DNA from: Candidatus Aminicenantes bacterium
Lineage (GTDB): Bacteria > Acidobacteriota > Aminicenantia > UBA2199
Length of the DNA: 64,000 nt
Direction of reading: 5' to 3'
Assembly: GCA_029938635.1 (NCBI GenBank)
Contig: JAOZUQ010000004.1
Location: 8,513-72,512 of the forward strand
A program made the translations under genes and the position numbers. The first letter of the stretch is position 1. Every line of letters starts with the position of its first letter. Below are positions 20,419-37,661 of the stretch, one piece after another. Below the pieces are notes generated by a model, which saw only the letters and a program-made list of their open reading frames with translations, was not told the origin of the DNA and ran no database searches.

Positions 20419-20451
20419 AGGCTCCCGGAGAGATCCGGGGGCTTTTTTTTT
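20419..20451 (+). terminator. Rho-independent terminator, same hairpin as at 19034 (GGCTCCCGGAGAGATCCGGGGGC plus T-run).
   Basis: Identical stem-loop sequence to the terminator after paralog A, followed by T9. Confidence 0.7.
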
Positions 20452-20499
20452 AACTACATTTTTTATTGTTAAAATAATTATAAATAAAACTTTAAAAAA

Positions 20500-20528
20500 A
20501 ATGAGATATTTCTTTTTTACTTTTATAT
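20500..20528 (+). promoter_or_regulatory. Sigma70-like promoter, ATGAGA-N17-TATATA, for the third paralog.
   Basis: ATGAGA at 20500..20505, 17-nt spacer, TATATA at 20523..20528. AAGGAGG RBS and ATG at 20559. Confidence 0.45.
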
Positions 20529-20558
20529 AATAGCTAGAATAAATTAAAGGAGGAAAAT

Positions 20559-21689
20559 ATGAAAAAATTATTTATATTTTCATTAGTTTTTGTAGTAGCA
20601 ATGGGCCTGGTATATTCAGCCGGGCTTACAGTAAATTCACCATCGGGTGGAACATGGTACAAAGGAACAACTCATAACATCACATGGACAGCGACAGGGT
20701 GTTCAAGCTCCAGTTATAAGATCAATATCTTCAGGGGGTCAATTGATCCTGCTAATTTTGTAGAACAACTTACCAAAACAGGAACTCCCACAAAGAGCTG
20801 GACAATACCTATGAGCTATACGAACGGGACCTATTACATCAGGATCAAAACAGATCCGGCACAGCCCGGATGTCAGGGAGACAGTGCTGCATTCACGATC
20901 ACGGATACTCCTACACCCGCCACATCAGCGATAACTATTACACACCCGACAGCAGGCGAAGAATTCTGCAGGGGACAGGGGGAGACAATATCATGGACCC
21001 ATACCGGTACATTGAGTGCAAATGTAAAGATCAATATATTCAGAGGTTCAATTGATCCTGCAAATTTTGTAACACAGCTTACGGCTACTACTGCAAGTGG
21101 ATCCAAAATATGGAATGTTCCTGCGGCTCAGGCATTAGGAACAAATTATCATGTTCGGGTGAAAGAGGCTACTCTCGGAACAACAAGTGGAGACAGCCCT
21201 GCATTTACAGTTGCAAATTGTGACGGAGGAAGTGGTCCGGGACTCGATCCGGGACTTATTGAAAGGCTTAAGGACTTGATGAGACGTCTTGAAAGGATCC
21301 CATGGTGGAGAAATCCAAAAGGCCCATGGCCTGGACCCGGACCGGGACCATGTCTTTCCTGCCCGGTGTTTGATCTTCAAAAACTTAGGGACTTGCTGAA
21401 AGAAGTTGGGTTAAAGGAAGAGATCGGAATTGCTCTGTATAATGGCGGACAGAAAATTGCTGATTTTGGAAAATTCGGCCCTCCCTCGCGCTTAGGAAGA
21501 AAGGGTTTGAAATTAAACAGACTAAAAGGGATGAAACTTATGCAAAACAGAGTAGGTCTGAAAAGTATTAAGATGGAACATACTAAAATGTTGAGCAGAG
21601 GTACAGGTTTTAAACTTGTATTCATCAATTCGAAGGGAAAAATGATCGGAGACTCCGGGATAAAACTGGAAGAGAAAGTAATGAAATAA
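20559..21689 (+). CDS. Secreted repeat protein, paralog C: conserved N-terminal Ig-like domains, a PGPGPGP linker, and a basic Gly/Lys/Leu-rich C-terminal module.
   Basis: MKKLFIFSLVFVVAMGLVYSA signal. Two Kre9/KNH-like domains. C-terminus …PWPGPGPGPCLSCPVFDLQKLRDLLKEVGLKEE…RLGRKGLKLNRLKGMKLMQNRVGLKSIKME…. Confidence 0.6.
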   Translation: MKKLFIFSLVFVVAMGLVYSAGLTVNSPSGGTWYKGTTHNITWTATGCSSSSYKINIFRGSIDPANFVEQLTKTGTPTKSWTIPMSYTNGTYYIRIKTDPAQPGCQGDSAAFTITDTPTPATSAITITHPTAGEEFCRGQGETISWTHTGTLSANVKINIFRGSIDPANFVTQLTATTASGSKIWNVPAAQALGTNYHVRVKEATLGTTSGDSPAFTVANCDGGSGPGLDPGLIERLKDLMRRLERIPWWRNPKGPWPGPGPGPCLSCPVFDLQKLRDLLKEVGLKEEIGIALYNGGQKIADFGKFGPPSRLGRKGLKLNRLKGMKLMQNRVGLKSIKMEHTKMLSRGTGFKLVFINSKGKMIGDSGIKLEEKVMK

Positions 21690-21788: not shown

Positions 21789-22802
21789 ATGCAGAACAAT
21801 ATTGCATCTTCAAAAGAATTGATATTTGCTGATCTGATAAAAATTACTAAAAAAAGGGCAATCTTGCTTTCCACAGTATTAATATCAGGAATAATTCTTA
21901 TAACACTTTTTTTTACTTTTAAATATCCTCCCGAGGCCTTATCATCAAGGATCTTCTCAGATGATCTCGGAAATATTTTCAGTATAATCAATAGTAAAAA
22001 TAGTTTTTTATCTCCTGATGATATCAACAAACTGATTGATCCCATTATTCAATTAAATATAGAAAAGAAGAAAAAATATAAGATTTCAGTAAAAAACACA
22101 TTTAAAAAAGGGAAAATACACAATTCAGTTGTTGGAGTCCTTGACCTGAATATAAGTAGAAAATTTGCAAAATATGATGAAAAAAGTAAAGTAAAATTTA
22201 CTAGGGATATTGAGGATTTTTTCAGGAAATTTGAGCATCAACTTTTTTTATGGTTTGTTTACAGAGAGAAAATTGAAAAGCTGAAGATCATAGACAACAT
22301 TATAAAAAAAAAAAAAGCAATTGAAGAAGAAGAGAAGAAAATTAGTATTGTAAAAAAATTCAAGGATATCCCCTCAGAAAATTACCGGGATATACTTGAT
22401 ATAGACCCTAGTTATCTTCCTCCTTCCCAGCAATATTACGGGCTTGTTATTGAAATGAATAACCAAAAAAGGCTTCTTGATTTGTTTAATGAAGCCCTTA
22501 TTGAAATAGATGGAATATTGAAAATTATTTCAGATAAAGAGTTGTCATTATTTTCTGAGATTGTAATTATCAAAGACCTGAAGCAGTATGAAATATTATA
22601 TAACAGAGTAAAGTTAATTTCTGAAAATATCCGGATTTTAAAGAATAAACTTATTTTAAGAGGATTTTATCGGTCTGAAAATATCCCGGGAATTTATCTG
22701 ATAGTTTTTTCCTTTTTAATACTCTTTATATTCCTGGTCATTTTAATAAGCTTTATTGAATGGTGGTCCAAAAATAAAGATAAGATTAACATCAGAATAT
22801 AG
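21789..22802 (+). CDS. Wzz-like polysaccharide co-polymerase (chain-length determinant) candidate. Called from topology only.
   Basis: 337 aa. TM1 at about aa 23-44, a Lys/Glu-rich predicted coiled-coil region of about 250 aa, and a C-terminal TM (IYLIVFSFLILFIFLVILISF). This is the PCP-1 architecture. GGAGGGG RBS. Confidence 0.4.
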   Translation: MQNNIASSKELIFADLIKITKKRAILLSTVLISGIILITLFFTFKYPPEALSSRIFSDDLGNIFSIINSKNSFLSPDDINKLIDPIIQLNIEKKKKYKISVKNTFKKGKIHNSVVGVLDLNISRKFAKYDEKSKVKFTRDIEDFFRKFEHQLFLWFVYREKIEKLKIIDNIIKKKKAIEEEEKKISIVKKFKDIPSENYRDILDIDPSYLPPSQQYYGLVIEMNNQKRLLDLFNEALIEIDGILKIISDKELSLFSEIVIIKDLKQYEILYNRVKLISENIRILKNKLILRGFYRSENIPGIYLIVFSFLILFIFLVILISFIEWWSKNKDKINIRI

Positions 22803-22997: not shown

Positions 22998-23717
22998 ATG
23001 CTATTAGTAACTGGAATGCACAGATCTGGGACTTCAATAACAACACAGTTGCTTCTTGAAGCTGGAGCTAAGCTTGGAAATCCTGACAAGCTATTTCCAG
23101 GAGACAAATGGAACCCCGATGGATATTTTGAACAAATGGAGATCCTGGATGTTAATATTTCATTAGTTAACGGGCCTTGGGGGAAATTTTCCTATTTCTC
23201 TCCACCTTCCGAGAATTTAATACTGAAAAGAGCGGAAAAGTTAGAAAATAAAATTAAGGAATTGTCCAGAAATCATATAGACCTAATTGTTAAAGACCCA
23301 AGGTTTTGTCTTACACTATCGGCCTGGAAGCAGTATTATGATGGTATAAAAAAGGTTCTGATCAATGTCAGAGAACCAATTCAAGTGGCCTATTCATTAA
23401 AAAAGCGAAATCATATTTCTATTAGATTGGGATTGAAGTTATGGTATGAACACAATAAAAGGATACTGGAATATGTAAATGATATTCCTCATATTTTTTT
23501 TAATTTTAATAATTTGTTTTCTCCTGAATTATCAACTCTGGAAATTAAGAAAGTATTTAAGTTTTTTGATTTAAATGTAAAGGATTCAAAAATAGATTCT
23601 ATTCTGAACAAATGTGTTAAATCATCTTTAAAACACAATACTATCACTGAATATAAGTATGAAAAAAATATAAGGGAACTTTGGGATCACTTAAAAAACA
23701 AGTGTGGAAGTTATTAA
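22998..23717 (+). CDS. Sulfotransferase (Stf0/NodH-like, PAPS-dependent).
   Basis: N-terminal LLVTGMHRSGTSITTQLL is a 5'-PSB P-loop-like motif. A downstream IVKDPRFCLTLSAW is a 3'-PB-like block. 239 aa. Confidence 0.6.
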   Translation: MLLVTGMHRSGTSITTQLLLEAGAKLGNPDKLFPGDKWNPDGYFEQMEILDVNISLVNGPWGKFSYFSPPSENLILKRAEKLENKIKELSRNHIDLIVKDPRFCLTLSAWKQYYDGIKKVLINVREPIQVAYSLKKRNHISIRLGLKLWYEHNKRILEYVNDIPHIFFNFNNLFSPELSTLEIKKVFKFFDLNVKDSKIDSILNKCVKSSLKHNTITEYKYEKNIRELWDHLKNKCGSY

Positions 23718-23753: not shown

Positions 23754-24416
23754 ATGATAAGTTTAAAAAAAATGAAGTTGAAAATATTTGGGGGGTTGGT
23801 CCCGGAAGGGGAATTGGGGTTGAAAATTATTGGATATCGTAAATATGTCGGAGGCAAATGGGATGAGATAGGAAATTTGCAATTTGATTATCTGATAAAA
23901 CAGGGATTAAAATCTTCTCACAGTTTTCTTGATATCGGTTGTGGTGCGCTAAGGGGCGGGTCAAGGTTTATTGAATACCTAGATGCCGGTAACTATCTTG
24001 GATTTGATAAAGAAAAAAAATTAGTTGAAATTGGTAAGAAGAAAGTTCTTCAAGGAAACTTGTTAAAAGAAAAAAATCCTGAATTTGTAATATCTGATAA
24101 GTTTGAGTTTGACGGATTTTTAAAAAAACCGAATTATTCACTTGCCCTGTCTTTGTTTTCCCATCTAAGTGAAGAAGATATATTGCTTTGCCTGAAAAAT
24201 CTCAGAAAATTTGTCAATAAAGAGCATATATTTTTTGCCACATTTTTTGAGGGTGAATCCGATAGAAACCCAGATAAATCTCATAGTCTTGACCATTTTG
24301 ATTTTACTAGAGAAGAGATGATCAAATTCGGGGAAAGAACAAGCTGGAAGTCGGAATACATCGGAGATTGGGACCATCCGAGAGACCAGAAAATGATCAA
24401 ATATATTGCCGAATAG
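23754..24416 (+). CDS. Class I SAM-dependent methyltransferase.
   Basis: LDIGCGALRGGSRFIE motif I (GxGxG) with a downstream acidic motif II. 220 aa. Confidence 0.65.
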   Translation: MISLKKMKLKIFGGLVPEGELGLKIIGYRKYVGGKWDEIGNLQFDYLIKQGLKSSHSFLDIGCGALRGGSRFIEYLDAGNYLGFDKEKKLVEIGKKKVLQGNLLKEKNPEFVISDKFEFDGFLKKPNYSLALSLFSHLSEEDILLCLKNLRKFVNKEHIFFATFFEGESDRNPDKSHSLDHFDFTREEMIKFGERTSWKSEYIGDWDHPRDQKMIKYIAE

Positions 24417-24429: not shown

Positions 24430-25374
24430 ATGGGATGTTTGTCAGAAAAAAAAACAAAAATCGGAATTAAGTTTTTTATTGGGATAATTTTACTGGGGAT
24501 ACTTGTATTCAAGTTGTACAATAATAAAATAGAATTCTTCAATTATACATTTAACAATTATTATTTTTTCTTCGGATTTTTTTTTATTTTATTTTCATTT
24601 TTTATTATTACTTTAAGGATTCATATTTTAGTGTCTGATTATGTTGAGAGTTATATTGAAACTTTAAAAATGTTTTTAATAGGATGGTTTTTTTCTAATA
24701 TACTTCCAACTAATATCGGAGGAGATGGATATATGATCCTCCATCTGAAAAAAAAATCTGTTTCAATGACAGAGGCAGTTACACTTGTAACTTTCCAGAG
24801 ATTTATAGGTTTGATTGTCCTTGTTGTTTATGGAATAGGATATTTGTTTTTTTATCCAAACTGGATCTATAAAATAGATATGAACCTGAATATTAGTTTT
24901 AATTTCGTTATTTTAATATCTGTGATTTTTATTATATTACTTTGCATTTTTTTCATTCTCTTCAAGGGAGTAATAAAAAAACAATTAAAAAAAGCAAGAA
25001 AATTCTTTATGGATTACAAAAGTATACTTAATGATTTCAAGTTTATTAAACATCTAAACCTGATACTTCTCTCAATTTCCTATCATTTGATCAGATTGGC
25101 AGGTTTATCATTTCTTTTACTAAGTTTTAATCAAAAAGTTGATCCTCCGGATATACTGTTCATTATGGTTATTGTTACAATTGGTTCTCTGATACCTATA
25201 AGCATCGGTGCTCTGGGTGTGCAGGAATCTCTGTTTACATTAGGATTGTCAACTTTTGGAGTTTCTGTTCCAATAGCTATTATAGTTTCCTTTATTAACA
25301 GAGGAATATATATTCTTGTTGCATTAATCGGCGGACTTCTTTTTTTGTTTGACAAGAAAAAAAAAGCAACATAG
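24430..25374 (+). CDS. Polytopic membrane protein, UPF0104 / LPG-synthase-TM 'flippase-like' family candidate.
   Basis: 314 aa, about 8 TM helices. An ILPTNIGGDGYMILHL block resembles the PxxGGxG(E) signature of that family. Low certainty. Confidence 0.3.
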   Translation: MGCLSEKKTKIGIKFFIGIILLGILVFKLYNNKIEFFNYTFNNYYFFFGFFFILFSFFIITLRIHILVSDYVESYIETLKMFLIGWFFSNILPTNIGGDGYMILHLKKKSVSMTEAVTLVTFQRFIGLIVLVVYGIGYLFFYPNWIYKIDMNLNISFNFVILISVIFIILLCIFFILFKGVIKKQLKKARKFFMDYKSILNDFKFIKHLNLILLSISYHLIRLAGLSFLLLSFNQKVDPPDILFIMVIVTIGSLIPISIGALGVQESLFTLGLSTFGVSVPIAIIVSFINRGIYILVALIGGLLFLFDKKKKAT

Positions 25375-25395: not shown

Positions 25396-27408
25396 ATGTC
25401 TTTTAATAAATTTAAAATTTTGTCATTTTCAAAATATGGATTAATAATTTTTTCAATTCTTTTGATTCTTTTCTTGTACACTCCATCAATCTTTTTTTTC
25501 TTCAGGGACTCTAATCAAGGAGCACAACTCTCAAAAGCTCAGGAGATCCTGAATGGATTTCATCCATTTGTGGATATTATGGGAAATATATACGGACCTC
25601 TTGTATTTTATTTTAGTACCCTGGGGCAACTTCTCTCTGGCAATAGATTAATAGGTGAGATTTTTATCATTGTTATCGGATATTTATCATCCTATTTGCT
25701 CCTTTATTATTTAATGGAAAGATTCACAAAAAGCTTTATGATCTCCTATCTATTATTAATAACTTTGTTATTATTTTTACCAAGATTCTATAAATATTAT
25801 ATTGTACTAGCTCCGATCTTAGTTCTATTTTCAATTTATTACCTTATTTTCAGAAATAGAAATTATAATGGAGTTGTTTTTTTAGGAATTTCCTGTGGGA
25901 TTTCTATTTTGTTTAGATTTGATTTTGGAGTATATGCTTTTATTGTCGGACTTTCAGTTATTTATCTGAGTTTAAAGGATAAGGGAAAAAAGATATTAAG
26001 GAATAATTTCATATATTTTACTGCATCTGTTTTTTTTGTGGGATTACCTTTCTTATTATTATTAATTTTGAATAACAGATTCCCGGGTGCAATAATTGAA
26101 ACTTTTGAAGTAGTAGTCGGGATGGCACACGGAATGGATCTGCCTGTTCCTGTATTCAATTTTCATCAATCTCTTTTTTCCTTATATAACAATATATCTC
26201 TATTTTTCTGGTTTTTTAGAATTTTACCTTTTATAGTATTGATAATTTTACTTACACTAAAAAAAAAAATAGAGCAAAAAGAGAGATTATTTATTTTTGT
26301 AACTTCTGTATTTTCTATTCTACTATATATTCAAGCCTTAAACAGGCCTCATATTTTCCATACACTTCAAGCTATACCTATGCAGTTTATTTTGATAGCA
26401 TGGATATTTGGTTACTCTAATAAAAAAATTGTAAGGAAAAGCTTTAGCATTAAACTGGCAATTGTATCTACAACATTGATTTTGTTATTTCTTATTATTC
26501 CATTTGTTAAAAACCATCATTTAATAAAAAAACATGGTGAATATAATTCTAATCTAAAGAATTGGTTTTCAAATTACAAGGAATTATTCTTAACAAAAGA
26601 GAGTTTAAGGGAAAAATACAAAAAGAAAAACGGGTTAATAAGAATAACAGATTTTGTGAATAGAAGAACAAAGAAGGATGAATCTGTTTTATTCATCCCT
26701 GTGGCCCCTCAGCTTTACTATTTTTCAGAAAGGGTTTTTAAAACATCTCTTGGTGTTTTGGGACCGGGAAGATTAACCACCAGGGAGAAACAATCAGCTT
26801 TCTTCCGGGAGTTAATAGATACAAACACAAATATTATAGTTGATTTCTACGAGTTTAGTTATGATAAAATTGCAGAAAGGAACCCAAGATATTATTATCC
26901 GTATTTAATGAATCTTATTTATTCAAATTACAAAATAGTTAGTAAATTTGGAAATAGAACTTTACTATGCAGAGACAATCGTTTTAATAAATTTCTTACA
27001 AACAAATTGCCTTCATTCAGCAATATGACATATGAGAAAAATATTTTTATAAAAAAAAAAATTCCGGCAAATATTTATAGAATAAATACTTTATTTGCAA
27101 AAAACATAACAAAAGTCAGCATAGTGAAAAAAGGAGTTCTGTTTTGTGAGATAAAGATCTCCCTGGAAAAAAGTATAATTAAAAAATATTTTCTGGGACT
27201 AATAAAGGGGAGTAAATTATATTTTACAGATATAAAGCCATTGAAAAGGAAAAAAGCTAAAAATAATTTTAAGTTTGAAGTTTTTTCTTCAACATCTAAT
27301 GTCCCGGAAGGATCATATAAAATGATTGTTTTTTATTCTGAAGATCAGAATAAATGGTATTATGAAGAGTTACCAATAGAAATTTTGATTACAAAGCCGA
27401 TAAATTAA
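25396..27408 (+). CDS. GT-C-like polytopic membrane protein with a C-terminal soluble domain. Paralog of 30036..32024.
   Basis: 670 aa. About 11-12 TM in the first ~390 aa. Conserved first-loop motif FFFRDSNQGAQLSKAQEILNGFHPF. About 65% identity to the 30036 product over the N-terminal 100 aa. Confidence 0.35.
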   Translation: MSFNKFKILSFSKYGLIIFSILLILFLYTPSIFFFFRDSNQGAQLSKAQEILNGFHPFVDIMGNIYGPLVFYFSTLGQLLSGNRLIGEIFIIVIGYLSSYLLLYYLMERFTKSFMISYLLLITLLLFLPRFYKYYIVLAPILVLFSIYYLIFRNRNYNGVVFLGISCGISILFRFDFGVYAFIVGLSVIYLSLKDKGKKILRNNFIYFTASVFFVGLPFLLLLILNNRFPGAIIETFEVVVGMAHGMDLPVPVFNFHQSLFSLYNNISLFFWFFRILPFIVLIILLTLKKKIEQKERLFIFVTSVFSILLYIQALNRPHIFHTLQAIPMQFILIAWIFGYSNKKIVRKSFSIKLAIVSTTLILLFLIIPFVKNHHLIKKHGEYNSNLKNWFSNYKELFLTKESLREKYKKKNGLIRITDFVNRRTKKDESVLFIPVAPQLYYFSERVFKTSLGVLGPGRLTTREKQSAFFRELIDTNTNIIVDFYEFSYDKIAERNPRYYYPYLMNLIYSNYKIVSKFGNRTLLCRDNRFNKFLTNKLPSFSNMTYEKNIFIKKKIPANIYRINTLFAKNITKVSIVKKGVLFCEIKISLEKSIIKKYFLGLIKGSKLYFTDIKPLKRKKAKNNFKFEVFSSTSNVPEGSYKMIVFYSEDQNKWYYEELPIEILITKPIN

Positions 27409-27420
27409 TATGTTTATAAA

Positions 27421-28161
27421 TCAGTCATAAGCTGATCTGATTTTCCCGGAACTGATCCTGTCAGATTTCTTCCATTTATAGGCTCTTATCCTGCGAAAAA
27501 AAAGGAACTTGAAATAATTGATGTAGCCTATATCTGAGATTGAATAATTGTAGTTTTTTATTTTATTGTAAATCAGAAAAGGTCCGAATATTATTTTAAT
27601 AAGTTTTTCAGGAACATCACTCTTTCCTTCAATCTTATTAGTTGGATTGTATAGTGGTAATTTCCTTTTTTGATCTATTCCTGCCTTTTTCAACATTTCA
27701 GAAAATCCTTTATTCAATTCATCAAAATATATCCATTGGTTAACATAATTCCTGTTTTCAGATATATAACTGTCATATGGAATAAATGAATACACATTCT
27801 TAAGATATTCCAGGAAATCCCAATTGTTTTTCTTTACCTGATGAAAAGTTCTTCTTGCTTTTTTTGAAACATGGCCGCCATTTTCTAAAAAATATTTCCT
27901 GTCGGTATAAACACCATTTGCATTTGTTTTAAGTTTATTGAATACCGAGAATACTATATCAACAGGATCTCTTTGAACAGCTGTTATATGGAATTGATTA
28001 ATATCCAATCCTTTGAAAATTTTAATCAAATAAGGGATATTCGCATGTTTATGAAGTAAAGGTTCACTATTGTAATTTTCGATCAACTCCTTTATTATTG
28101 CACTCGAAGCGGAATAGGGTATCCCGATAAACAGTAATTTATACTTTTTGTTAATGACCAT
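27421..28161 (-). CDS. Sulfotransferase-like protein with a degenerate PAPS-binding motif. Opposite strand to the surrounding cluster.
   Basis: 246 aa. LLFIGIPYSASSAI is P-loop-like, but Tyr sits where the 5'-PSB Lys is expected. ITAVQRDPVDIVFSVF is a 3'-PB-like block. Confidence 0.3.
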   Translation of the reverse strand: MVINKKYKLLFIGIPYSASSAIIKELIENYNSEPLLHKHANIPYLIKIFKGLDINQFHITAVQRDPVDIVFSVFNKLKTNANGVYTDRKYFLENGGHVSKKARRTFHQVKKNNWDFLEYLKNVYSFIPYDSYISENRNYVNQWIYFDELNKGFSEMLKKAGIDQKRKLPLYNPTNKIEGKSDVPEKLIKIIFGPFLIYNKIKNYNYSISDIGYINYFKFLFFRRIRAYKWKKSDRISSGKIRSAYD

Positions 28162-28409
28162 TCTATATATATTATCATGAGAAATGTTTTTTTTGAATTA
28201 AGGAATAATTTCTGGCATTACCCCATTTTTTCATATCATATCTCTGTAAATTACTGCCTCCGGATAACGTCATGTCCATCATCATTTCCAACATGAACTT
28301 CTACTCTAAAATATGGGGTGATGACAAAATAGTTTGATTAGATAAGCAATATATTTCATTTTTTTTATGCTATAATTTCAAATTGAAAAATGCTATCAGG
28401 TTTTCCAAT

Positions 28410-29972
28410 ATGAGAATCGAACTAAAGAAAAAAAAATATTCTATCATCGGATTTTTTCTATTATTAATTCTAATAATTCTTTTTCTTGAAAAACCAGTAA
28501 ATAATTTAATATCAAAGAATAAACAACTAAAGAAAAATATTATTCTGATTGTTTCCGATGCATTACGAAAAGATATTCTCGGATGTTATGGTGGCAAAGC
28601 AAAAACTCCAAATATAGATAAACTGGCCAAAAGAGGAATATTATTTGAAAATGCTTATACAATATCTCCTGTGACAATCCCTTCCTCTGTAGTTTTATTA
28701 ACAGGGAACCATTCGGGATCATACTCACTTTTTTCTGCTAAAGTTAATAATACTACAAAAAAGTTTTTTTTCCATGTTAATAACAAGGATGAACTATTCT
28801 CTGAAATTCTCAGAAAGAATGGTTATGATGTTAAAATGGATATCGAAAACCCCTTGGCTAAAAGTTCAAATAATACTCAGGGATTTGAAAATCTCTACAG
28901 TTTTAAATTAATTAAAAAATTCGATATTTTTAAAATGTTTAATCTTTTTGTAAATAATCAGATTAAAAACATAGAAAAAAAAATCGGAATATTAAAAAGT
29001 GTTCATGAACTCCCTCGCGGTCATTCCAATGATTATTTAAGGACTTATAGCATTCTTGACTATATTCTTACTATTCCAAATAAAAAGAACTTCTTTATTC
29101 TGAAATGGTTTATGGATCCACATGCTCCTTATAACCCTTTAAAAAAATTTAGGGAGAAAATAAAATTCAATCCAGTAGATCTTATAGAAAACAAAAATTA
29201 TTATTCTCGAAATAATGTTAGAAAACTCTTAGAAAGAGAAAAAAAAGGAAAGGAATTTACAAAAGAAGAAATTTCCTATATCAAATCTCTTTATATAGCT
29301 GAAATTGAGTCCGTTGACGAAAGAGTGGGATACATAATGAAAGCGCTGGAAATTAAAAACCTTTTAAACAATACAATTATTATTTTTACTTCAGATCACG
29401 GTGAATTCTTTAACGAGCATGGAGAATTGGGTCATAGTTTATTATATTATGATCAGCTTATACGAATTCCGCTTATTATTTCAGGATCTGGTATACCTGC
29501 CGGAGAAAGAATAGTTAGCAGAGTTTCAAATATGGATATTATTCCTACCCTGAAAGAATTGATGAAAATGAATTATAAAAGTAAAATGTCAGGGAAAAGT
29601 TTCAAAGATCTGCTATTAAATCAGGAATCAAATCCAAATCAAAAAACAATCTATTTTGATACTCTCGGGCATTCTGTAAAAAGAGTTACTGCGAGAGATG
29701 CAATTTTGTATAAAGAATTTAAGCTGATTATTACAAGAAATAAGGGTAAGACAAAATATGAACTATATAATATAATAAGCGACCCGGCAGAGGAGAATAA
29801 TCTTGCTTCATTTAATTTACCGCTTATCAGGAAAATGCTCAGTGAAGTAATAAAAAACAGGAATAGCATAAGAAACCAATACAAAATCAATCTGAAAAAA
29901 AAAGATAATACAAAACTTGATAAGAAGTGGGAAAAAACAAAAAAACACTTAAAAACTCTGGGATATATTTAA
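28410..29972 (+). CDS. Sulfatase/alkaline-phosphatase superfamily protein, membrane-anchored. Thr-type.
   Basis: IILIVSDALRKD, TSDHGEFFNEHGELGHS. Active-site position V-T-I-P-S-S-VVLLTGNH. Ends ...KTLGYI. Start ambiguous: ATG 28410 (MRIELKKKK…) or TTG 28383. Confidence 0.6.
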   Translation: MRIELKKKKYSIIGFFLLLILIILFLEKPVNNLISKNKQLKKNIILIVSDALRKDILGCYGGKAKTPNIDKLAKRGILFENAYTISPVTIPSSVVLLTGNHSGSYSLFSAKVNNTTKKFFFHVNNKDELFSEILRKNGYDVKMDIENPLAKSSNNTQGFENLYSFKLIKKFDIFKMFNLFVNNQIKNIEKKIGILKSVHELPRGHSNDYLRTYSILDYILTIPNKKNFFILKWFMDPHAPYNPLKKFREKIKFNPVDLIENKNYYSRNNVRKLLEREKKGKEFTKEEISYIKSLYIAEIESVDERVGYIMKALEIKNLLNNTIIIFTSDHGEFFNEHGELGHSLLYYDQLIRIPLIISGSGIPAGERIVSRVSNMDIIPTLKELMKMNYKSKMSGKSFKDLLLNQESNPNQKTIYFDTLGHSVKRVTARDAILYKEFKLIITRNKGKTKYELYNIISDPAEENNLASFNLPLIRKMLSEVIKNRNSIRNQYKINLKKKDNTKLDKKWEKTKKHLKTLGYI

Positions 29973-30035
29973 AAGAAATTATGATGAATATATTCTTTGG
30001 TACTATAGTTTATATATTTTTTTAGAGGTCAAAAT

Positions 30036-32024
30036 TTGAGTGTAATTAAAAAATCTGTATATTCTAAAATAATAAAATCTTTACTGTTATCTTTATATAT
30101 ATTGTTCTTTCTTTTCTTAAACATCCCATCTATTACATTTTTTTTTAGAGATCCCGACCAGGGAGCTCAACTTGCAAAAGCGATGGAAATATTAAATGGA
30201 TTTCATCCTTTTATTCATATTAAAGGTAATATATATGGCCCTTTAGTATATTACTTCAGTGCATTGGGGCAATTTTTATCTGGAGGCAAGCTTATTGGAG
30301 AGGTTATTGTCATATTGGGCGGATATCTTACTGCATATCTAATCATATATTACCTTATTGAGAAGATAACCGGAAAAATTTTAATATCATTATTGTTACT
30401 TACTATAGCGTTAACGTTATTACCAAGGTTCTATAAGTATTATATAGTACTTGGGCCGGCTGTATTTTTGTTGGCATTATATTATTTTGTTAACAATGAT
30501 AATTCACAAAAGAAACTTTTTTTCCTGTCTGCTGGTACTGCTATAACGGCTTTGTTTCGTATTGATTTTGGTGTTTATTCTATAGTTGTCGCTCTTATTG
30601 CAATAGTAATTTACAAGGGGAGTGACCGATCAAATACATGGATTAAATGTATTGTTATTTATTTTGCATTTCTAATCATGATAGTTTTACCGTGGATTGT
30701 TTTGGTTATTATATTAAGTGGATCATTAAAACCTTTTCTGGAATTATTTCCGATAATTAAAAATATGGCAACGGATCTTTCTCTCCCTATCCCTGTTTTC
30801 ACCCAGCATCAAGTCTGGTTTTCAAAGTATAATAATTTTTCTCTACTTTTTTGGGCCTTCCGAATATTACCTTATTTTACTCTTATCATATTATATTTTA
30901 ACAAAGGAATTATAGAACAGAAGAAAAAGAATTTTATTATCTTAACTTCAATTTATACTGCTATAATATTTATCCAGGCACTTCACAGAACGAGTTTTAC
31001 TCACCTGCGTCATTGTATCCCGTTAACATTTATTCTTATTGGATGGTTGATCGGGAAGCTGATAAAAAATAAATCAGAATGGAAAAAGTTTTATGTTGTC
31101 CCAATAATAATGTATTTGATCATTCTTCTGTCAGGTTGGACTGTTTTTATGATTAATAACAGAGTGCTGAAAAGGTACAAAATTGCTTTGAATAAAGGGG
31201 TAACAAATTTTTCCTATATTTCTTATTCCAATGCTGATCTACGTATCAAGTTTAAGAAAAATATGTATATAAAAACAGCTGCCATAATAAATAAGTACTC
31301 AGATAAAAATGAACCGGTCATGTTCTTTCCGATTGAATCTCAATTATATTATTTCTCGGAAAGGATGTTTAAAAAATCAATGGGAATGCTGGGACCTGGC
31401 AGGCTAAATACCGAGGATCAGCAGGTTTTATTTTTTAAAGAACTTATAAATAGCGGCACAAATCTTATGGCAGACAGGCCTTTTTTTGCCTATGATAAAA
31501 TACCGGAAAGAAATCCAAGATTCTATTATCCTCATCTTATGAGATTAATATATGCTGAATATAAAATTGTTTGCAAATCTGGTGATTTTATAATTTTATG
31601 CAGGGATGATCGTTTTAATCAATATTTATCAAATAATAATCACTTCTCTAAATTTTCAGAAATCCAGAGTCCCGGGAAAGGATCAAATCGTGTTAATATC
31701 TCTTTTGATACTGTAAATACTTTCCCCTCTGAAGAAATATATCATCTGGCTCATAATGAAAGTATGCTTTATATTACAGGTAGTATTGAGTTAGAAAAAA
31801 AAGGTTTTAACAAAAAATCGTTTTTATTAGGGCTCCGGAAGGGTGAGAAATTATTTACATCCGGTGTAGCATTTACTGATAGAAGAGATCAATTAAATCT
31901 AAGATTCGAATTATTCTCATCACTTTTTTATGTTAATCCGGGAGAGTATGAATTAATAGCATTGGTCAAAGAAGGAGAGAAGTTTAGGATAATTGATTCA
32001 AATATAGTAATAGCTGTGATATAA
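30036..32024 (+). CDS. GT-C-like polytopic membrane protein with a C-terminal soluble domain. Paralog of 25396..27408.
   Basis: 662 aa. TTG start 6 nt after AGAGGT. Conserved loop FFFRDPDQGAQLAKAMEILNGFHPF. Same TM plus C-terminal-domain architecture as its paralog. Confidence 0.35.
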   Translation: MSVIKKSVYSKIIKSLLLSLYILFFLFLNIPSITFFFRDPDQGAQLAKAMEILNGFHPFIHIKGNIYGPLVYYFSALGQFLSGGKLIGEVIVILGGYLTAYLIIYYLIEKITGKILISLLLLTIALTLLPRFYKYYIVLGPAVFLLALYYFVNNDNSQKKLFFLSAGTAITALFRIDFGVYSIVVALIAIVIYKGSDRSNTWIKCIVIYFAFLIMIVLPWIVLVIILSGSLKPFLELFPIIKNMATDLSLPIPVFTQHQVWFSKYNNFSLLFWAFRILPYFTLIILYFNKGIIEQKKKNFIILTSIYTAIIFIQALHRTSFTHLRHCIPLTFILIGWLIGKLIKNKSEWKKFYVVPIIMYLIILLSGWTVFMINNRVLKRYKIALNKGVTNFSYISYSNADLRIKFKKNMYIKTAAIINKYSDKNEPVMFFPIESQLYYFSERMFKKSMGMLGPGRLNTEDQQVLFFKELINSGTNLMADRPFFAYDKIPERNPRFYYPHLMRLIYAEYKIVCKSGDFIILCRDDRFNQYLSNNNHFSKFSEIQSPGKGSNRVNISFDTVNTFPSEEIYHLAHNESMLYITGSIELEKKGFNKKSFLLGLRKGEKLFTSGVAFTDRRDQLNLRFELFSSLFYVNPGEYELIALVKEGEKFRIIDSNIVIAVI

Positions 32025-32053: not shown

Positions 32054-32941
32054 ATGATAATTAAAAGAGCTCTTTTAAAATCATGGCGTGGTATTACTTT
32101 TATTCCTCATTGGATTCTGGATTCAGTCTTCCTTGGAATTGATAAAAAAAATATTATCTGGACAAGGAATATCAGGTTGATCCCCCGGAAGAAATTCAGG
32201 AAAGGGGCAAGGACCTCATATGCTGAGTATGGCCATGTGATCGGGATTTTTCAGACTTTGATAAAGCAGAACCTTAAAAGTGAAAACAATGTACGTATCC
32301 TCGATATCGGCTGTGGTACCGGCCTTATGGGTATGGCATCCGAGCCGATTTTATTTGAAGGCGGGCATTATACAGGTATTGATTTAATTGACAATAATGT
32401 TAAATACTGTAAAGCCCATTTTGATCCAAAGTATTTCAATTTTATTTTATCAGAAGCAACTAACTCCGCATATAATCCCGGTGGCATTGTAAAAAAAACA
32501 AAATGGGATCTGAAAGACAATACATTTGATTTGGTAACAGCTTTATCCGTTTGGACACATTTAGATGAAGATGATGCCGTATTTTATTTAAAAGAAGTGA
32601 AAAGGGTTCTGAAACCGGGAGGGAGGGCTATAATTACATTCTTCTTTTTAAATGAACTCTATAGAGCCGGCATTGATCAAAGAGTAAAGAGGGAAAGTTT
32701 TTTTCACATGACCTCTCCCGGTAAATGGGTTTTTGATAAACCGGTATATGATTCAAAGAACTGGTTTTGCCCTCAATGGGCGAGAGTTCCGGAAAGTGCT
32801 ATAGGGATTAATGAAAAAGGGATGGATAAGCTTTTAAAAGAATCAGGACTTGAAATTAACTCAATAATGGCTGGGAACTGGAAAGAAATACCGGGAGTCT
32901 ATTTTCAGGATATTATTATTTTTGAAAAACCAAAAAAATAA
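32054..32941 (+). CDS. Class I SAM-dependent methyltransferase.
   Basis: ILDIGCGTGLMG motif I, and a LKPGGRAIITFF post-motif II/III region. 295 aa. Confidence 0.65.
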   Translation: MIIKRALLKSWRGITFIPHWILDSVFLGIDKKNIIWTRNIRLIPRKKFRKGARTSYAEYGHVIGIFQTLIKQNLKSENNVRILDIGCGTGLMGMASEPILFEGGHYTGIDLIDNNVKYCKAHFDPKYFNFILSEATNSAYNPGGIVKKTKWDLKDNTFDLVTALSVWTHLDEDDAVFYLKEVKRVLKPGGRAIITFFFLNELYRAGIDQRVKRESFFHMTSPGKWVFDKPVYDSKNWFCPQWARVPESAIGINEKGMDKLLKESGLEINSIMAGNWKEIPGVYFQDIIIFEKPKK

Positions 32942-32964: not shown

Positions 32965-34347
32965 TTGAAACATTTAAATTTGATCAACAATAGATTTATA
33001 AAAGATAAAAATCTACTTGAAGTATTGAAAGGCTCATCTGCAGCTTTCCTGCTAAGGGTTGCAGGAATGGTATCAAGTTATTCACTGATTTTCCTTATCT
33101 CTCATGTATACGGGGCTGATGTCCTCGGTATTTTTGCCCTGTGTCTCACTCTTCTTCAGGTGTTTACTGTTCTCGGAAAATTAGGGGTAGATACAGCGAT
33201 GATGAGGTTTGTCTCCGAATACTCAACCTCAGGTGAATTCATTTTTATCTCAAGGATGTCAAAACTTGCACTGAATATACTACTGCCATTGTCTTCTGTT
33301 ATATGCATTCTGGTATTTTTTTATTCACGTGAGATTGCAGAAGTTGTTTTCAAAAAAGGGTATCTTACTCCATATTTTAAGATTGCTGCACTTGGGATAG
33401 TACCGAATATATTTATAATGCTCAATTCTGAAAGGCTTAGAGGATTAAAGAAAATAAAAGAATACTCATTTCTTAGAAATGTAGCTATTCCCCTTTTTGC
33501 TTTTGGAATACTCGGAATTTCATCTGTATTTATTTCCCACAAAGTACTTCCGGTTTTAATTTATATGATAGTAGTGGTAATTACAGCAATTATCAGTTTT
33601 ATATTCTGGAGAAAGGCATTCACTGCTGAGAGTGGAAACTCAAATGTGTTGTCAATGAATCAAGGGAAATCAAGACCAGATTACAGAAAACTGCTTGGAT
33701 TGGCAATCCCCATGCTCTTCACCACTTCACTTCTGTTGATAATGGGATGGACAGACACGATAATGCTCGGTATCTTCAAAACCACCGCTGATGTAGGTAT
33801 TTACAGAGTTTCTCTTCGACTTGCTGCTATAATCTCTATTACTTTGATTGCTTTTAATGCAATTTTGGGTCCAAAAGTTACTGAATTATGGGAAAAGGGG
33901 AAAGTTAATGAATTAAAAAAAGTTGTCAGACAGGCAACAGCAATAGTTTTTGTGTCATCAATGATTGGATTTATTATTTTGGTAATTTTTCGACATTTGA
34001 TTCTGGGGATGTTTGGACCGGAGATTCGATCCGGATCCACTGCTTTTATTTTTTTGCTGCTTGGGCAGTTATTTAATTCAGCTGTAGGGTCTGTGGGACT
34101 GATATTGATGGTAACCGGCAAGCAAATTGTCATTCAAAACGTTATGATTGCTGGAACCATTATTAACATAACTCTAAATTTACTATTGATACCAAATTAT
34201 GGTATTAATGGTGCTGCTTTTGCGAGTATGACAAGTATGATATTTATTAATATTATTCCTTTCATCTATGTTAAGAAATTTATGGGTTTTTATACTCTAT
34301 CATTTAGTATGATGCGGGTCAGAAGGAGAGGTGTAAAAAAACAGTAA
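32965..34347 (+). CDS. Wzx-type oligosaccharide flippase (MOP superfamily polysaccharide biosynthesis protein).
   Basis: 460 aa, about 12-14 TM helices, Wzx-like length and hydropathy. Located in a GT/Wzy/WbaP context. TTG start. Confidence 0.55.
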   Translation: MKHLNLINNRFIKDKNLLEVLKGSSAAFLLRVAGMVSSYSLIFLISHVYGADVLGIFALCLTLLQVFTVLGKLGVDTAMMRFVSEYSTSGEFIFISRMSKLALNILLPLSSVICILVFFYSREIAEVVFKKGYLTPYFKIAALGIVPNIFIMLNSERLRGLKKIKEYSFLRNVAIPLFAFGILGISSVFISHKVLPVLIYMIVVVITAIISFIFWRKAFTAESGNSNVLSMNQGKSRPDYRKLLGLAIPMLFTTSLLLIMGWTDTIMLGIFKTTADVGIYRVSLRLAAIISITLIAFNAILGPKVTELWEKGKVNELKKVVRQATAIVFVSSMIGFIILVIFRHLILGMFGPEIRSGSTAFIFLLLGQLFNSAVGSVGLILMVTGKQIVIQNVMIAGTIINITLNLLLIPNYGINGAAFASMTSMIFINIIPFIYVKKFMGFYTLSFSMMRVRRRGVKKQ

Positions 34348-35684
34348 TGATACCTGTATTGATTTTTACAGTGGCAGTCATTTTTTTGTTATCATCAATT
34401 TTATTTCCGCGAAAGATATTTTTTTTGATGTTATTTTTTATTATCTTATGGCCGGATCTTATTTTTTATAAATATAATGACTTTCCAGGTATAACCCCTA
34501 CAAGAATAATGATTTTTGTTTTATCTGTTGCATTTATAATCAATGTATTACTGCTTAATGAAAAAACTATTGTTATTTGGGACCAGATAAAAAAGAACCG
34601 AAAAATAAAATATATATTGACTCTGATTATTATCTTCTTTTTTGTTCAGTTCTCTTCTTCGCTATTAATGTCTTCCAATATTTTTAAATCTCTTTATGCT
34701 TTCTTCAATAATTTTATATCCGGGTTTTTATTATTATTGTTTATTCTGTTTTTCTTTAATACAAGTAAGGATATTCGTAAAATTTTCAATTTCCTTTTTC
34801 TCTGTGCACTTGTTGTAAATTTAGTTGCATTATATGAATATATATCAGGAGATTCTGTTTTTTCAAATTTTCTTTTAACTCAAAATGAATTTAATGTAAA
34901 GGCAGTGTTAATTCAGTCTAGAAGTGGAATTCACAGGTTGAAGTCTGTTTTCTCAAATACATTAATTTATGCTCAATATATGGTCTCAATGATCCCCATT
35001 GCCATTTTTTTACTTAAGAATGAAAAGAAAAAATTTTTCAGATTTATTATAACTCTTTATTTATTATCAAATGTGTTTTTTGTTTTCCAAACAGATTCAA
35101 GAACGGGAATGGGTTTAATAGTTCTAATTCCTTTGGTTATACTAATATTCAAATTTTTCCAGAAAATTGAAAATATGTTTAAAAGGAATGTGATTTATTC
35201 TATTATTATCGGAGTGATTTTATTATCTGTTTTCTTAATTGCAGTTAATGCAGATTATGCTCTGGAATATAGTGAGCTGAATCCAATTTCCGAAAAAGAT
35301 AAAAGTACTATTCATAGAATCAGGCAGTTTGAACTTGCAATGAAACAAATTCCAGGCTCTCCTCTTATAGGGTATGGTGCAGGTGAAGGAGTGAATTGTG
35401 TAGCTCCGTATACGACCATAGATAGTTTTTACTTAAGTTTATTACTTGAGGTTGGAATTTTGGGGTTGTTGGTATTTGTTGTTTTTAATATTAAATTGTT
35501 AGACCTATTTCTTAGTGGATCAGGAGATATTCTATCAGAGAAATTTTATTTAGCAGTTTCTATAAGTATAATGTTAATGTTTTATTTTATATTATCACTT
35601 GATAAAATGAATTCGATATATTTTATTCTTATAGGTATGGGAATGTCAATGATTCTGAATACTGAGAAAGCAGAAACCCGATAA
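34347..35684 (+). CDS. Wzy / O-antigen-ligase-like (Wzy_C) polytopic membrane protein.
   Basis: 445 aa, more than 10 TM. Extracytoplasmic loop with QTDSRTGMG. 1-nt overlap with the wzx stop. Confidence 0.45.
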   Translation: MIPVLIFTVAVIFLLSSILFPRKIFFLMLFFIILWPDLIFYKYNDFPGITPTRIMIFVLSVAFIINVLLLNEKTIVIWDQIKKNRKIKYILTLIIIFFFVQFSSSLLMSSNIFKSLYAFFNNFISGFLLLLFILFFFNTSKDIRKIFNFLFLCALVVNLVALYEYISGDSVFSNFLLTQNEFNVKAVLIQSRSGIHRLKSVFSNTLIYAQYMVSMIPIAIFLLKNEKKKFFRFIITLYLLSNVFFVFQTDSRTGMGLIVLIPLVILIFKFFQKIENMFKRNVIYSIIIGVILLSVFLIAVNADYALEYSELNPISEKDKSTIHRIRQFELAMKQIPGSPLIGYGAGEGVNCVAPYTTIDSFYLSLLLEVGILGLLVFVVFNIKLLDLFLSGSGDILSEKFYLAVSISIMLMFYFILSLDKMNSIYFILIGMGMSMILNTEKAETR

Positions 35685-35797
35685 GTTTTTTTGGAGGCAA
35701 AGATAAAAGAAATAGGGAAGTTAAATAAGGAACTTAATTATTTGTTGAAATCCAGGATTCCGATTATATTCGCAAAATACAATATATATATATCAAA

Positions 35798-36769
35798 ATG
35801 GTTAATAATTTAGATAGTGCAGCCAGAGTGTTTATTGTTGTTCTCAATTTTAATAATTGGCGAGATACTGTAGAATGTCTTGACAGCCTTCTTGAGATAA
35901 CTTATAAAAATTATTCAATCGTTATTGTAGATAATGATTCAAATGATGGTTCTCCTGAAAAAATAGTTACTCACTGCAGGGGAATTAGCGAAGAGATTGA
36001 TATTTTGAATACTAATGAGCAGATTACTGCACATAAGAAAACTGTCAGAATAAAACTTTTACGGGCGGACAAGAATGGAGGATACGGATATGGGAATAAT
36101 CTCGGTATTAAATATGCACTTTCAGAAAGAGCTGATTATGTCCTTATTATCAATAATGATACAATAGTCGATCCTGATTTTTTGCAGCCCCTGGTTAATA
36201 CTTGTGAAGATGATAAAACGATGGGAATTGTTTCGGGGAAAATTTATTATTATGACAAACCGGATACAATATGGTCTAATGGAGGCCATTTTCATTCATG
36301 TACCGGGAAAGTAGAACAGTTTAATTTTAATGAGAAAGATAATGGCCTGATCCCCGAAGGGGAGATTAATTTTATCAGTGGGTGTATGTGGTTTATCCCT
36401 GTAGATGTGATACGGGAAGTCGGATATATTAACGAAGAGTATTTTATGTATATGGAAGATATTGATTATTGTCATAGAGTGCTTGAGAGAGATTATAAAC
36501 TTGCTGTTGTCCCGGAAAGCAGGATCTTCCATAAGGCAGGAGACAGGGATAAAAGTTTTTCAAAGTTCAGTGTTTACTGGAGAAGTAGAAATTACATGAT
36601 TTTATTAAAAAGAACAGAACCTTTTTTTTTCAATAGAATACTAAAGGCATTAGTATTTAATATTTTTTATTCGATAAGGTTGATAAAATATATGAAAATG
36701 AGCAGAATTCCGGATCAGTTAAGGGGGATGTTGAATGGGAGCTTACGTGGAAAACAAAAAACCACCTAA
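35798..36769 (+). CDS. Glycosyltransferase family 2.
   Basis: FIVVLNFNNWRDTVECLDSL…VIVDNDSNDGS is the GT2 N-terminal signature, with a DxD-type region downstream. 323 aa. Confidence 0.7.
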   Translation: MVNNLDSAARVFIVVLNFNNWRDTVECLDSLLEITYKNYSIVIVDNDSNDGSPEKIVTHCRGISEEIDILNTNEQITAHKKTVRIKLLRADKNGGYGYGNNLGIKYALSERADYVLIINNDTIVDPDFLQPLVNTCEDDKTMGIVSGKIYYYDKPDTIWSNGGHFHSCTGKVEQFNFNEKDNGLIPEGEINFISGCMWFIPVDVIREVGYINEEYFMYMEDIDYCHRVLERDYKLAVVPESRIFHKAGDRDKSFSKFSVYWRSRNYMILLKRTEPFFFNRILKALVFNIFYSIRLIKYMKMSRIPDQLRGMLNGSLRGKQKTT

Positions 36770-37661
36770 TCTACTGATTATAGGTGTTCATAAAGCGGGG
36801 ACCACCTCTGTTTTTGAATATCTGTCTGCTCATCCTGAAGTTTGCGGAAGCAGGAAAAAGGAACTCCATTATTATACTCCTTTAAGATTCAACAGGCCTT
36901 TGACAGATTTTGATGATTACCTGAGTAAATTCTCACATTGCCGTAAAGTAAAATATCGCCTTGAGGCCAGCCCCTCCTATCTTTATGGAAAGGGAAAGAT
37001 AGGGGGGAGGATCAGAAATGATCTTGGAAATGTCAAACTGATCCTGATCCTGAGAGATCCGGTTTCAAGGTTTATTTCATTTTATAAATCTCTAAAAACC
37101 ACTCTACGTCTTGATGTAAAGACAGAATTTGATAATTTCCTTGAAGATTCGGTTAAGGCATCATCAGGTGAGGAGTCGGAAGATGTTTATTTCAGGGGTT
37201 TCCAGGAGGGTTTATATTCAGAATATATTAAGGACTGGATTAAAATGTTTGATAGAAACTCATTAAAAATTGTTTTTTTTGAACATCTGAAAGATGATCC
37301 TTCCCGTTTCATGATCGAACTTGCTGACTGGCTTTCAATTGACGGAACTTTATATAAAGATACCGGGTTATTTAAGATCTCAAACAGAACCAGAATGCCT
37401 TCAAGTATAATGGTTCATAAATTTGCCATGTTAATGAATAAAAGGTTTGAATTTTTCTTCAGGTCACAGAAAAGATTAAAACAATCACTGAGAGAATTTT
37501 ATTTTAAGATTAACAGGGAAGAAGATATGGAAATAATTTCTGAAGCTTCTGTTAAAAGAGTGAAAGATCTGTATATCGGAGAAACAATAAAATTAAAACA
37601 GATTTTAGATAACCTGGGGATTGATTATATTCCATTATGGTTGGATAATATTAATAATTAA
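36735..37661 (+). CDS. Sulfotransferase (heparan-sulfate-sulfotransferase-like fold).
   Basis: LLIIGVHKAGTTSVFEYL is the 5'-PSB. LILILRDPVSRFISFYK is the 3'-PB. 308 aa. Overlaps the GT2 gene by 35 nt. Confidence 0.7.
   Translation: MGAYVENKKPPNLLIIGVHKAGTTSVFEYLSAHPEVCGSRKKELHYYTPLRFNRPLTDFDDYLSKFSHCRKVKYRLEASPSYLYGKGKIGGRIRNDLGNVKLILILRDPVSRFISFYKSLKTTLRLDVKTEFDNFLEDSVKASSGEESEDVYFRGFQEGLYSEYIKDWIKMFDRNSLKIVFFEHLKDDPSRFMIELADWLSIDGTLYKDTGLFKISNRTRMPSSIMVHKFAMLMNKRFEFFFRSQKRLKQSLREFYFKINREEDMEIISEASVKRVKDLYIGETIKLKQILDNLGIDYIPLWLDNINN

Follow-up and report, generated by a model that had tools for sequence, protein, structure and literature searches.

What do two large, related membrane proteins that match no named family do in the middle of a polysaccharide locus? 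The question is raised by a 64,000-nucleotide stretch of a Candidatus Aminicenantes contig (JAOZUQ010000004.1), called the window hereafter, which carries the genes of two paralogs. We put at roughly 65% the probability that both are integral-membrane glycosyltransferases of the GT-C_A type acting in a multi-component periplasmic glycosylation pathway. The two genes are as follows.

25396..27408, + strand: paralog 1, 670 amino acids (aa), ATG start, GT-C-fold membrane protein of the variant type (motifs DSNQG and NRPH..H)
30036..32024, + strand: paralog 2, 662 aa, TTG start, GT-C-fold membrane protein with the canonical motifs DPDQG and HRT..H

The paralogy of the two proteins is far above chance, with 43% identity over 639 aa (BLASTP expectation value, E, of 9e-158). 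Identity is 65% over residues 21-145, and the figure of about 65% given for the N-terminal regions by an earlier reading of this DNA, made by a model from the letters and hereafter called the sequence-only reading, is therefore correct. It amounts to 44% in the membrane part, 49% over residues 376-535 and only 24% in the C-terminal beta domain (the last ~130 residues). The motif FFFRD(S/P)(N/D)QGAQL...NGFHPF, which that reading had named, is literally present in both proteins. It had also stated that neither protein fits a nameable family, and a search of Pfam-A and NCBIfam with both paralogs indeed returned no match at E<=0.1, PMT_2 (PF13231) included, other than one of paralog 1 to Guanylate_cyc_2, which was rejected as noise (E 0.025, 14 bits against a cut-off of 28).

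Structure prediction provides the assignment that sequence searches do not give. AlphaFold2 models were built with 16 homologs for paralog 1 (predicted local distance difference test, pLDDT, 83; predicted template modelling score, pTM, 0.81) and with 30 homologs for paralog 2 (pLDDT 89.6, pTM 0.88). With the first model Foldseek returned ArnT as the best match (E 7.7e-6, probability 1.00), followed by ALG12, ALG3, AftB and Pmt4; with the second the top matches were DPY19, ArnT, AftA and ALG12. The fold table, in which the kind of value is unlabelled, lists Pmt4 (19.1), ALG3 (18.3), ALG12 (18.2), ArnT (18.0), AglB (17.8), PIG-M (17.7), Pmt2 (15.8), AftA (15.5), AftB (15.1) and STT3B (14.8). The multi-helix membrane core, that is the module of transmembrane helices (TM) 1-7, superposes on solved GT-C enzymes. 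The GT-C-like fold proposed from the letters is thus recovered by Foldseek with both models, and the outcome named at that time as contrary to it, a transporter or another fold outside GT-C, did not appear, transporter matches being negligible.

Regarding architecture, 13 helices precede residue 375, about 11 of them predicted from positive-inside statistics to cross the membrane, and ~290 aa of soluble sequence follow, in agreement with the many helices and the soluble domain described previously. In the predicted layout of paralog 1, TM1 (residues 8-28) is followed by external loop helices at 32-37 and 39-52 and by a short hydrophobic helix at 68-80; the membrane domain extends to ~373, a periplasmic alpha/beta domain covers 381-535 and a beta-sandwich covers 540-670. 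The model of paralog 2 has the same layout. Topology was derived from the counts of K and R per loop over 77 relatives together with secondary structure. The charge-rich loops (N terminus, 107-114, 152-158, 193-205, 287-298 and 341-352) alternate with charge-poor ones, a pattern that would fit ~11 crossings, with both the first loop and the C-terminal domain on the outer side. All strongly conserved polar residues would then lie in predicted periplasmic loops: D38/D40, D60, E88 at the outer end of TM2, K133 in PRFYKYY, R174 and D176 in FRxDFG, H316, R317, D319, H322, Q325 and R446. The beta-sandwich has only generic structural matches (CBM21, Ig-like, filamin and Wzt-CBD); most members of the family have a length of 500-550 aa and are without this domain. 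It probably binds glycan, and GT136, a GT-C enzyme with a glycan-binding carbohydrate-binding module (CBM), offers a precedent (PMC11127046).

The paralogs belong to a GT-C family that no database names, and which is a candidate new glycosyltransferase (GT) family. A word-indexed search found 15 relatives in 5.8 billion sequences, and a second word-index homolog search with alignment added almost nothing. When 1.84 billion cluster representatives were searched exhaustively with a profile, 2,934 were found at E<1e-3, 1,386 at E<1e-10 and 271 at E<1e-30. The sources of these 271 are metagenome-assembled genomes (MAGs) that bear the labels Acidobacteriota, Nitrospirota or Planctomycetes-type (Tepidisphaeraceae, Phycisphaerales), together with a cyanobacterial assembly; the nearest relatives are in MAGs labelled Acidobacteriota, 'uncultured Clostridia' and 'uncultured bacterium'. 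Source databases name them 'hypothetical protein', one JGI entry reading 'ArnT-like'. Weak PMT_2 matches occur in four of the 77 relatives (E<0.01) and in the relative P0015 (27.2 bits, cut-off 26.1), the best E among them being 4e-6. With no Pfam or NCBIfam model of its own, this family corresponds well to the uncharacterised GT-C subfamily that the sequence-only reading had suggested.

The family consensus runs P-x(4-5)-[FL]-x-[DSN]-x-D-x-G-x-Q-L...G-x-H-P-F-x-D...Y-G-P-L...E...P-R-F-Y-K-Y-Y and continues as ...F-R-x-D-F-G...L-P-x-P...Q-A-x-H-R-x-D-x-x-H-L-x-Q...R...P-G. Numbered as in paralog 1, the conserved positions among the 77 relatives are D40 (88%), E88 (95%), K133 (92%), R174 (100%), D176 (97%), R317 (95%), H322 (99%) and R446 (94%). 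The loop motif had been described as an invariant acidic one, and this part does not hold: position 40, its best-conserved acid, is Asn in paralog 1, and position 38 is D in just 57% of the relatives. Its placing at the GT-C catalytic position does hold, as the models put D38/N40 of paralog 1 and D39/D41 of paralog 2 at the N-terminal tip of the helix after TM1 (39-52 and 40-53, respectively). GT-C_A enzymes share TM1-7 and the juxtamembrane helices JM1 and JM2, with an essential Asp at the JM1 tip in all of them (PMC12041299). Both paralogs have an Asp at the predicted JM1 tip, paralog 1 with N40 keeping D38 alone. Judging from the models, the D-x-D at the tip of juxtamembrane helix 1 would likely serve catalysis, and the basic residues K133, R174, R317 and R446 are candidates for binding the donor phosphate.

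Paralog 2 is canonical at these positions. The motifs DSNQG and NRPH..H of paralog 1 reflect a triple change, D40N, H316N and D319H, and conservation of these positions across the family is 78-88%; D38, E88, K133, R174, D176, R317, H322, Q325 and R446 are retained. The same three changes are found in the paralog 1 orthologs of two other genomes (L011_670 and L001_a), each encoded beside a paralog with canonical motifs. As the changes are kept among proteins that are only 54-67% identical, the variant is evidently maintained by selection. A separate tandem pair of family members, 69% identical, was seen in a distant clade (locus L019, 4026..7593), with E-x-D in the loop motif and Y/T at the H316 position; the GT-C gene has therefore been duplicated more than once.

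Gene linkage in related loci is what connects the family with a lipid-linked donor. We compared 24 independent loci with family members, counting neighbours within the flanks; the strict PRFYKYY pattern, taken from a 16-sequence alignment, selected 6 genome loci and 17 metagenome loci. The counts are raw, without a background control, several contigs are short, and local annotation came from a limited query set. A GtrB/ArnC-like polyprenyl-phosphate sugar synthase lies nearby in 9 of the 24 loci (L003, L008, L009, L011, L015, L023, L026, L027 and L035). The neighbouring GT2 proteins of L008, L009 and L035 match GtrB (5ekp) over the full length (E 1e-84, 2e-77 and 9e-83, respectively), and that of L011 is a full-length match of ArnC (E 6e-43). 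A class I methyltransferase is nearby in 11 of the 24, including L033 (the cyanobacterial assembly), L008 (Nitrospirota) and L026 (planctomycete-like). Gene order is GT2-methyltransferase-methyltransferase-GT-C in L003 and L008 and GT-C-methyltransferase-GT2 in L026, and in L035 a GT2-methyltransferase pair lies ~5 kb from the GT-C gene. The pairing of each paralog with a methyltransferase that had been noticed earlier is thus a recurrent link, but a loose one, and in the window it is not strictly one-to-one. In the papers that could be searched, no description of a GtrB-methyltransferase-GT-C module was found.

In the clade nearest to the window the GT-C genes close an Arn-like cassette, with the order GT2, short-chain dehydrogenase/reductase (SDR), DegT aminotransferase, flippase, methyltransferase, GT-C and GT-C (L011/L016, L015 and L017). 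In L011 the region is 2897..11866, and a hexapeptide acyltransferase is found downstream. This cassette suggests an amino-sugar donor in the sister loci, possibly N-methylated or acylated. All of the five closest loci have an MprF-type flippase-like gene; the window, L001, L011, L015 and L017 have it together with the GT-C gene, and sulfatase-fold genes adjoin family members in the window, L013/L014 and L035.

The other features of the window are given below.

3365..5872, + strand: third GT-C protein, 835 aa, bona fide PMT_2 by Pfam (E 4e-12), unrelated in sequence to the paralogs
6822..8618: carbamoyltransferase, following the PMT_2 protein
12168..14027, - strand: second sulfatase-family gene
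14232..21689, + strand: four secreted Kre9_KNH/GEVED Ig-like-domain proteins (1077, 466, 400 and 376 aa) with S/T/P-rich linkers
21789..22802, + strand: 337-aa protein heading the cluster, no Pfam match, hydrophobic N and C termini and a charged middle rich in Lys and Glu
22998..23717, + strand: sulfotransferase-like protein (Sulfotransfer_1, E 5.6e-5), head of a sub-operon
23754..24416, + strand: class I S-adenosylmethionine (SAM) methyltransferase, 220 aa, weak Methyltransf_12 match (E 4.8e-6, below the Pfam cut-off)
24430..25374, + strand: flippase-like membrane protein of the MprF flippase-domain family (Pfam LPG_synthase_TM, E 5.8e-31; NCBIfam TIGR00374)
27421..28161, - strand: conserved open reading frame of 246 aa between the paralogs, no Pfam match
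28383..29972, + strand: membrane-anchored sulfatase-fold protein of the alkaline-phosphatase superfamily (Pfam Sulfatase, E 8e-41)
32054..32941, + strand: class I SAM methyltransferase, 295 aa (Methyltransf_11, E 1.5e-14; Methyltransf_25, E 7.7e-14)
32965, + strand: Wzx (Pfam)
34347, + strand: Wzy (Pfam)
35798, + strand: soluble GT2 (Pfam)
36735 and 37707, + strand: two sulfotransferases (Pfam)
38578 and 39730, + strand: two GT4-type glycosyltransferases (Pfam)
41663, + strand: epimerase (Pfam)
42754, + strand: Bac_transf initiating phosphoglycosyltransferase, 472 aa (Pfam)
44162, + strand: second Wzy_C protein, 640 aa (Pfam); the remainder of the cluster spans 32965..46084

The genes around the paralogs form a Wzx/Wzy-type polysaccharide cluster, with operon-like intergenic gaps of 13-63 bp on the + strand. 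It coincides with a low-G+C island at ~22-41 kb (28-30%, against 37-41% in the flanks), and low G+C content is typical of variable, horizontally exchanged glycan loci. At its head, the 337-aa protein (21789..22802) may be a Wzz-like chain-length regulator; genes of 329-333 aa resembling it, also without a Pfam match, stand at the same place in L001, L011 and L015. A homolog of the sulfotransferase-like protein (22998) occupies the same position in L001 and L016. The methyltransferase at 23754 opens a run of methyltransferase, flippase-like and GT-C genes; it is 72% identical to the methyltransferase beside the L011 GT-C pair, and the same gene is found in L001, L015 and L016. The flippase-like gene (24430), which ends 21 bp upstream of paralog 1, is a candidate translocator of a lipid-linked donor. 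For such a flippase HexF of C. difficile is the precedent, itself a bioinformatic assignment only (PMC10128005).

The sequence-only reading had placed a methyltransferase next to each paralog. This is true of paralog 2, as the 32054 gene begins after a gap of 29 bp, but not of paralog 1, which is separated from the 23754 gene by the flippase-like gene; moreover, L001, the locus with the closest synteny, has no counterpart of the 32054 gene behind its second GT-C gene. Between the paralogs, the 246-aa gene on the opposite strand is matched in L001 and L002 by a gene of equal length, position and orientation. The N terminus of its product (GIPYSASSA) loosely resembles the 3'-phosphoadenosine 5'-phosphosulfate (PAPS) loop of sulfotransferases. 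The sulfatase-fold gene (28383) lies 63 bp directly upstream of paralog 2, and its product has T-I-P-S-S opposite the S-G-P-S-R of GlcNAc-6-sulfatase 5g2v, that is at the formylglycine motif C/S-x-P-S-R, and therefore the label 'Thr-type' that it had received is correct. Phosphotransferases of the alkaline-phosphatase superfamily typically have Thr as the nucleophile. The protein is probably not a classical sulfatase, and is probably a second periplasmic enzyme that decorates or trims the glycan. Downstream, possible roles of the second Wzy_C protein (44162) are those of an O-antigen ligase and of a PglL-type protein O-oligosaccharyltransferase, and the cluster from 32965 to 46084 likely supplies the acceptor glycan.

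Taken together, the favoured explanation is a periplasmic glycosylation pathway in which each paralog would use a lipid-phosphate sugar donor at the extracytoplasmic face, as the GtrB/ArnC-like synthases in 9 of the 24 loci indirectly support; the sequence-only reading had likewise suggested lipid-linked donors and action on the outer face of the membrane. The paralogy, the fold, the conserved motifs and the linkage in related loci are results of the analysis; from them we infer the topology, the class of donor, the role and timing of the methyltransferases, the function of the flippase and the identity of the acceptor. In such a pathway, a GtrB/ArnC-like GT2, encoded outside the window, would load a sugar onto polyprenyl (undecaprenyl) phosphate at the cytoplasmic face. 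A linked class I methyltransferase (23754 or 32054) may methylate the sugar, either on its lipid carrier or earlier, as a nucleotide sugar; AglP of Haloferax is a precedent for the methylation of glycans that are lipid-linked. The MprF-type flippase-like protein (24430) would move the lipid-linked sugar to the outer leaflet, and each paralog would transfer it to a different position, or transfer a different sugar, on the sulfated Wzx/Wzy polysaccharide, both genes being located inside the cluster of Wzx, Wzy, GT and sulfotransferase genes. One might go further and propose a distinct four-component pathway, in which a polyprenyl-phosphate sugar is methylated while lipid-linked, flipped by an MprF-type protein in one clade and added periplasmically as a methylated side-chain sugar, with the canonical/variant pair acting as an obligate heteromer or a mechanism switch; we offer this very tentatively, as a doubtful extension.

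Several observations weigh against the favoured explanation. A tblastn search of the 64-kb window with four queries found no GtrB/ArnC-like gene, the synthase that a Gtr system would have, and the supply of the donor therefore depends on an unseen gene. The soluble GT2 at 35798 was considered as the donor synthase and rejected, having no GtrB, ArnC or DPMS match in the PDB. Among the 24 loci, 15 show no GT2 and 13 no methyltransferase, many contigs being short and the queries limited, and the co-occurrence with methyltransferases in 11 loci stands without a background rate. The PDB was searched with profiles from the 16-sequence and 77-sequence alignments and from the PMT_2-positive P0015, and these returned noise and no GT-C protein. 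The family profile aligned to the window's own PMT_2 protein with an hhalign probability of 0.4%, and consequently there is no sequence-based mapping of residues onto a named family. The topology that puts the conserved residues outside is derived solely from charge statistics and secondary structure. Finally, paralog 1 is without the family's best-conserved acid and, from its sequence, may be mechanistically different or non-catalytic.

This last point leads to the idea that paralog 1 is an altered or inactive heteromer partner of the canonical paralog 2, as in the pairs Pmt1-Pmt2 and EmbA-EmbB, which is compatible with the favoured explanation as far as paralog 2 is concerned. The D40N/H316N/D319H signature common to paralog 1, L011_670 and L001_a, each beside a canonical paralog, is conserved among proteins 54-67% identical and so under selection, and PMT and Emb GT-C enzymes have been solved as heterodimers (6p2r and 7bvf). 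However, paralog 1 keeps the nine other conserved residues listed above, D38 may assume the catalytic role, and two genes separate the paralog genes, one of them on the opposite strand; we regard a heteromer as unlikely. The genes upstream of the cluster point in another direction, to PMT or streptococcal Pgt-type protein O-glycosyltransferases whose acceptor would be the Ser/Thr-rich linkers of the Kre9_KNH/GEVED proteins (14232..21689). These four paralogous signal-peptide proteins, the last three of which have a nearly identical N-terminal region of ~120 aa, may be surface glycoproteins. They are encoded directly upstream, and in L001 and L015, which are syntenic with the window, Kre9_KNH genes likewise precede the cluster; the second Wzy_C protein (44162) could be an O-oligosaccharyltransferase. 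GtrB-dependent GT-C glycosylation of Ser/Thr-rich regions is reported for streptococci (PMC12041528). Nevertheless, L001 and L015 are closely related, and therefore the Kre9_KNH synteny may be mere inheritance; the distant members L003, L008, L009, L033 and L035 are without such neighbours, and the paralog genes are placed between sulfotransferases and Wzx/Wzy, all of which makes protein glycosylation an unlikely function.

An ArnT-like role, in which the paralogs would modify lipid A or the lipopolysaccharide (LPS) core with an amino sugar that is donated by a polyprenyl-phosphate carrier and may be N-methylated, has in its favour that ArnT is the best Foldseek match of paralog 1 and the second of paralog 2, that JGI labels one relative 'ArnT-like', and that the GT-C genes of L011, L016, L015 and L017 follow an ArnC-like GT2 (E 6e-43), SDR, DegT and flippase-like genes. 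It is quite improbable for the window itself, from which the GT2, SDR and DegT genes of this linkage are absent (tblastn found no DegT gene in the 64 kb) and where the GT-C genes come in two copies inside a Wzx/Wzy repeat-unit cluster; in addition, no match to ArnT is seen at the sequence level, and ArnT is without the extra beta-sandwich domain. A transporter or structural membrane protein that is merely GT-C-like would agree with the lack of any Pfam, NCBIfam or PDB sequence match and with the few major facilitator superfamily (MFS) transporters in the Foldseek list of paralog 1 (probability 0.1-0.2). Such a protein would not explain the conserved D-x-D, basic and histidine residues in predicted external loops nor the repeated linkage of the family to GtrB/ArnC-like synthases; the transporter reading was rejected on fold scores, and a function other than glycosyl transfer is hardly credible.

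Comparison with known systems is important in order to place the periplasmic glycosyltransferase pair that we favour. The sequences of GT-C enzymes vary widely, and the characterisation of further members continues to add families to CAZy (GT136 in 2024). Like the Gtr/GT136 systems (GtrA/GtrB/Gtr* of Shigella and Salmonella; ORF12 of C. youngae, the founder of GT136; PMC11127046), the window has a GT-C transferase inside an O-antigen or polysaccharide cluster and a dedicated flippase candidate, the family homologs are linked to a GtrB-like synthase (E 1e-77 to 1e-84), and the additional beta-sandwich at the C terminus is reminiscent of the CBM with which GT136 binds glycan. In contrast, neither Gtr* nor any other named family resembles the paralogs in sequence, the window has a flippase candidate of the MprF type (LPG_synthase_TM/TIGR00374) instead of one of the GtrA/SMR or MATE type, the family has class I methyltransferases as recurrent partners, the synthase gene is absent from the window, and there are two paralogs, one with altered conserved residues. 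With ArnT the paralogs share ~11-13 membrane helices, a C-terminal periplasmic domain and the best or second-best Foldseek match, and the homologs in L011, L015, L016 and L017 follow genes like those of the Arn pathway (ArnC, ArnA, ArnB, ArnE/F and ArnT). They differ from ArnT in the lack of detectable sequence homology, in the additional beta-sandwich and in the motif set D-x-D-x-G-x-Q-L, HPF, YGP, PRFYKYY, FRxDFG and HRxDxxH; the window is without ArnC/ArnA/ArnB-like genes, and the setting is Wzx/Wzy and not a lipid A modification operon. As regards PMT_2 (PF13231)/COG1807, 'ArnT-like', in the neighbourhood of CAZy GT39 and GT83, four of the 77 relatives and P0015 show weak matches, whereas the window paralogs show none and the family profile is not alignable to the PMT_2 protein at 3365..5872.

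By analogy, the serotype c carbohydrate (SCC) locus of S. mutans would be a close functional analogue. Its GT-C enzymes SccM and SccQ install side chains at different positions, and SccH is a periplasmic decorator of the alkaline-phosphatase superfamily (PMC11754754). Both in SCC (SccN/P, SccM/Q and SccH) and in the group A carbohydrate (GAC) locus of S. pyogenes (GacI/L/H; PMC11754754), as in the window, there are two GT-C paralogs in one polysaccharide locus; like SCC, the window has an alkaline-phosphatase-superfamily protein in the same locus as the GT-C pair. Unlike them, it has GT-C proteins of unrelated sequence families in a different organism and envelope, a sulfatase-fold protein that resembles S1 sulfatases and not LtaS, and sulfotransferases and methyltransferases with no synthase gene in the locus. 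Defining the family motifs and the synthase linkage would improve the annotation of environmental polysaccharide clusters and would provide a candidate new GT family that is open to testing. The methyltransferase and MprF-type flippase partners hint at variations on three-component systems, possibly with methylated side-chain sugars installed outside the cytoplasm. Overall, the type of system is already well known and no concept is changed, and its more unusual features are the methyltransferase that recurs in related loci, the flippase partner of the MprF type and the conserved pair of a canonical and a variant paralog.

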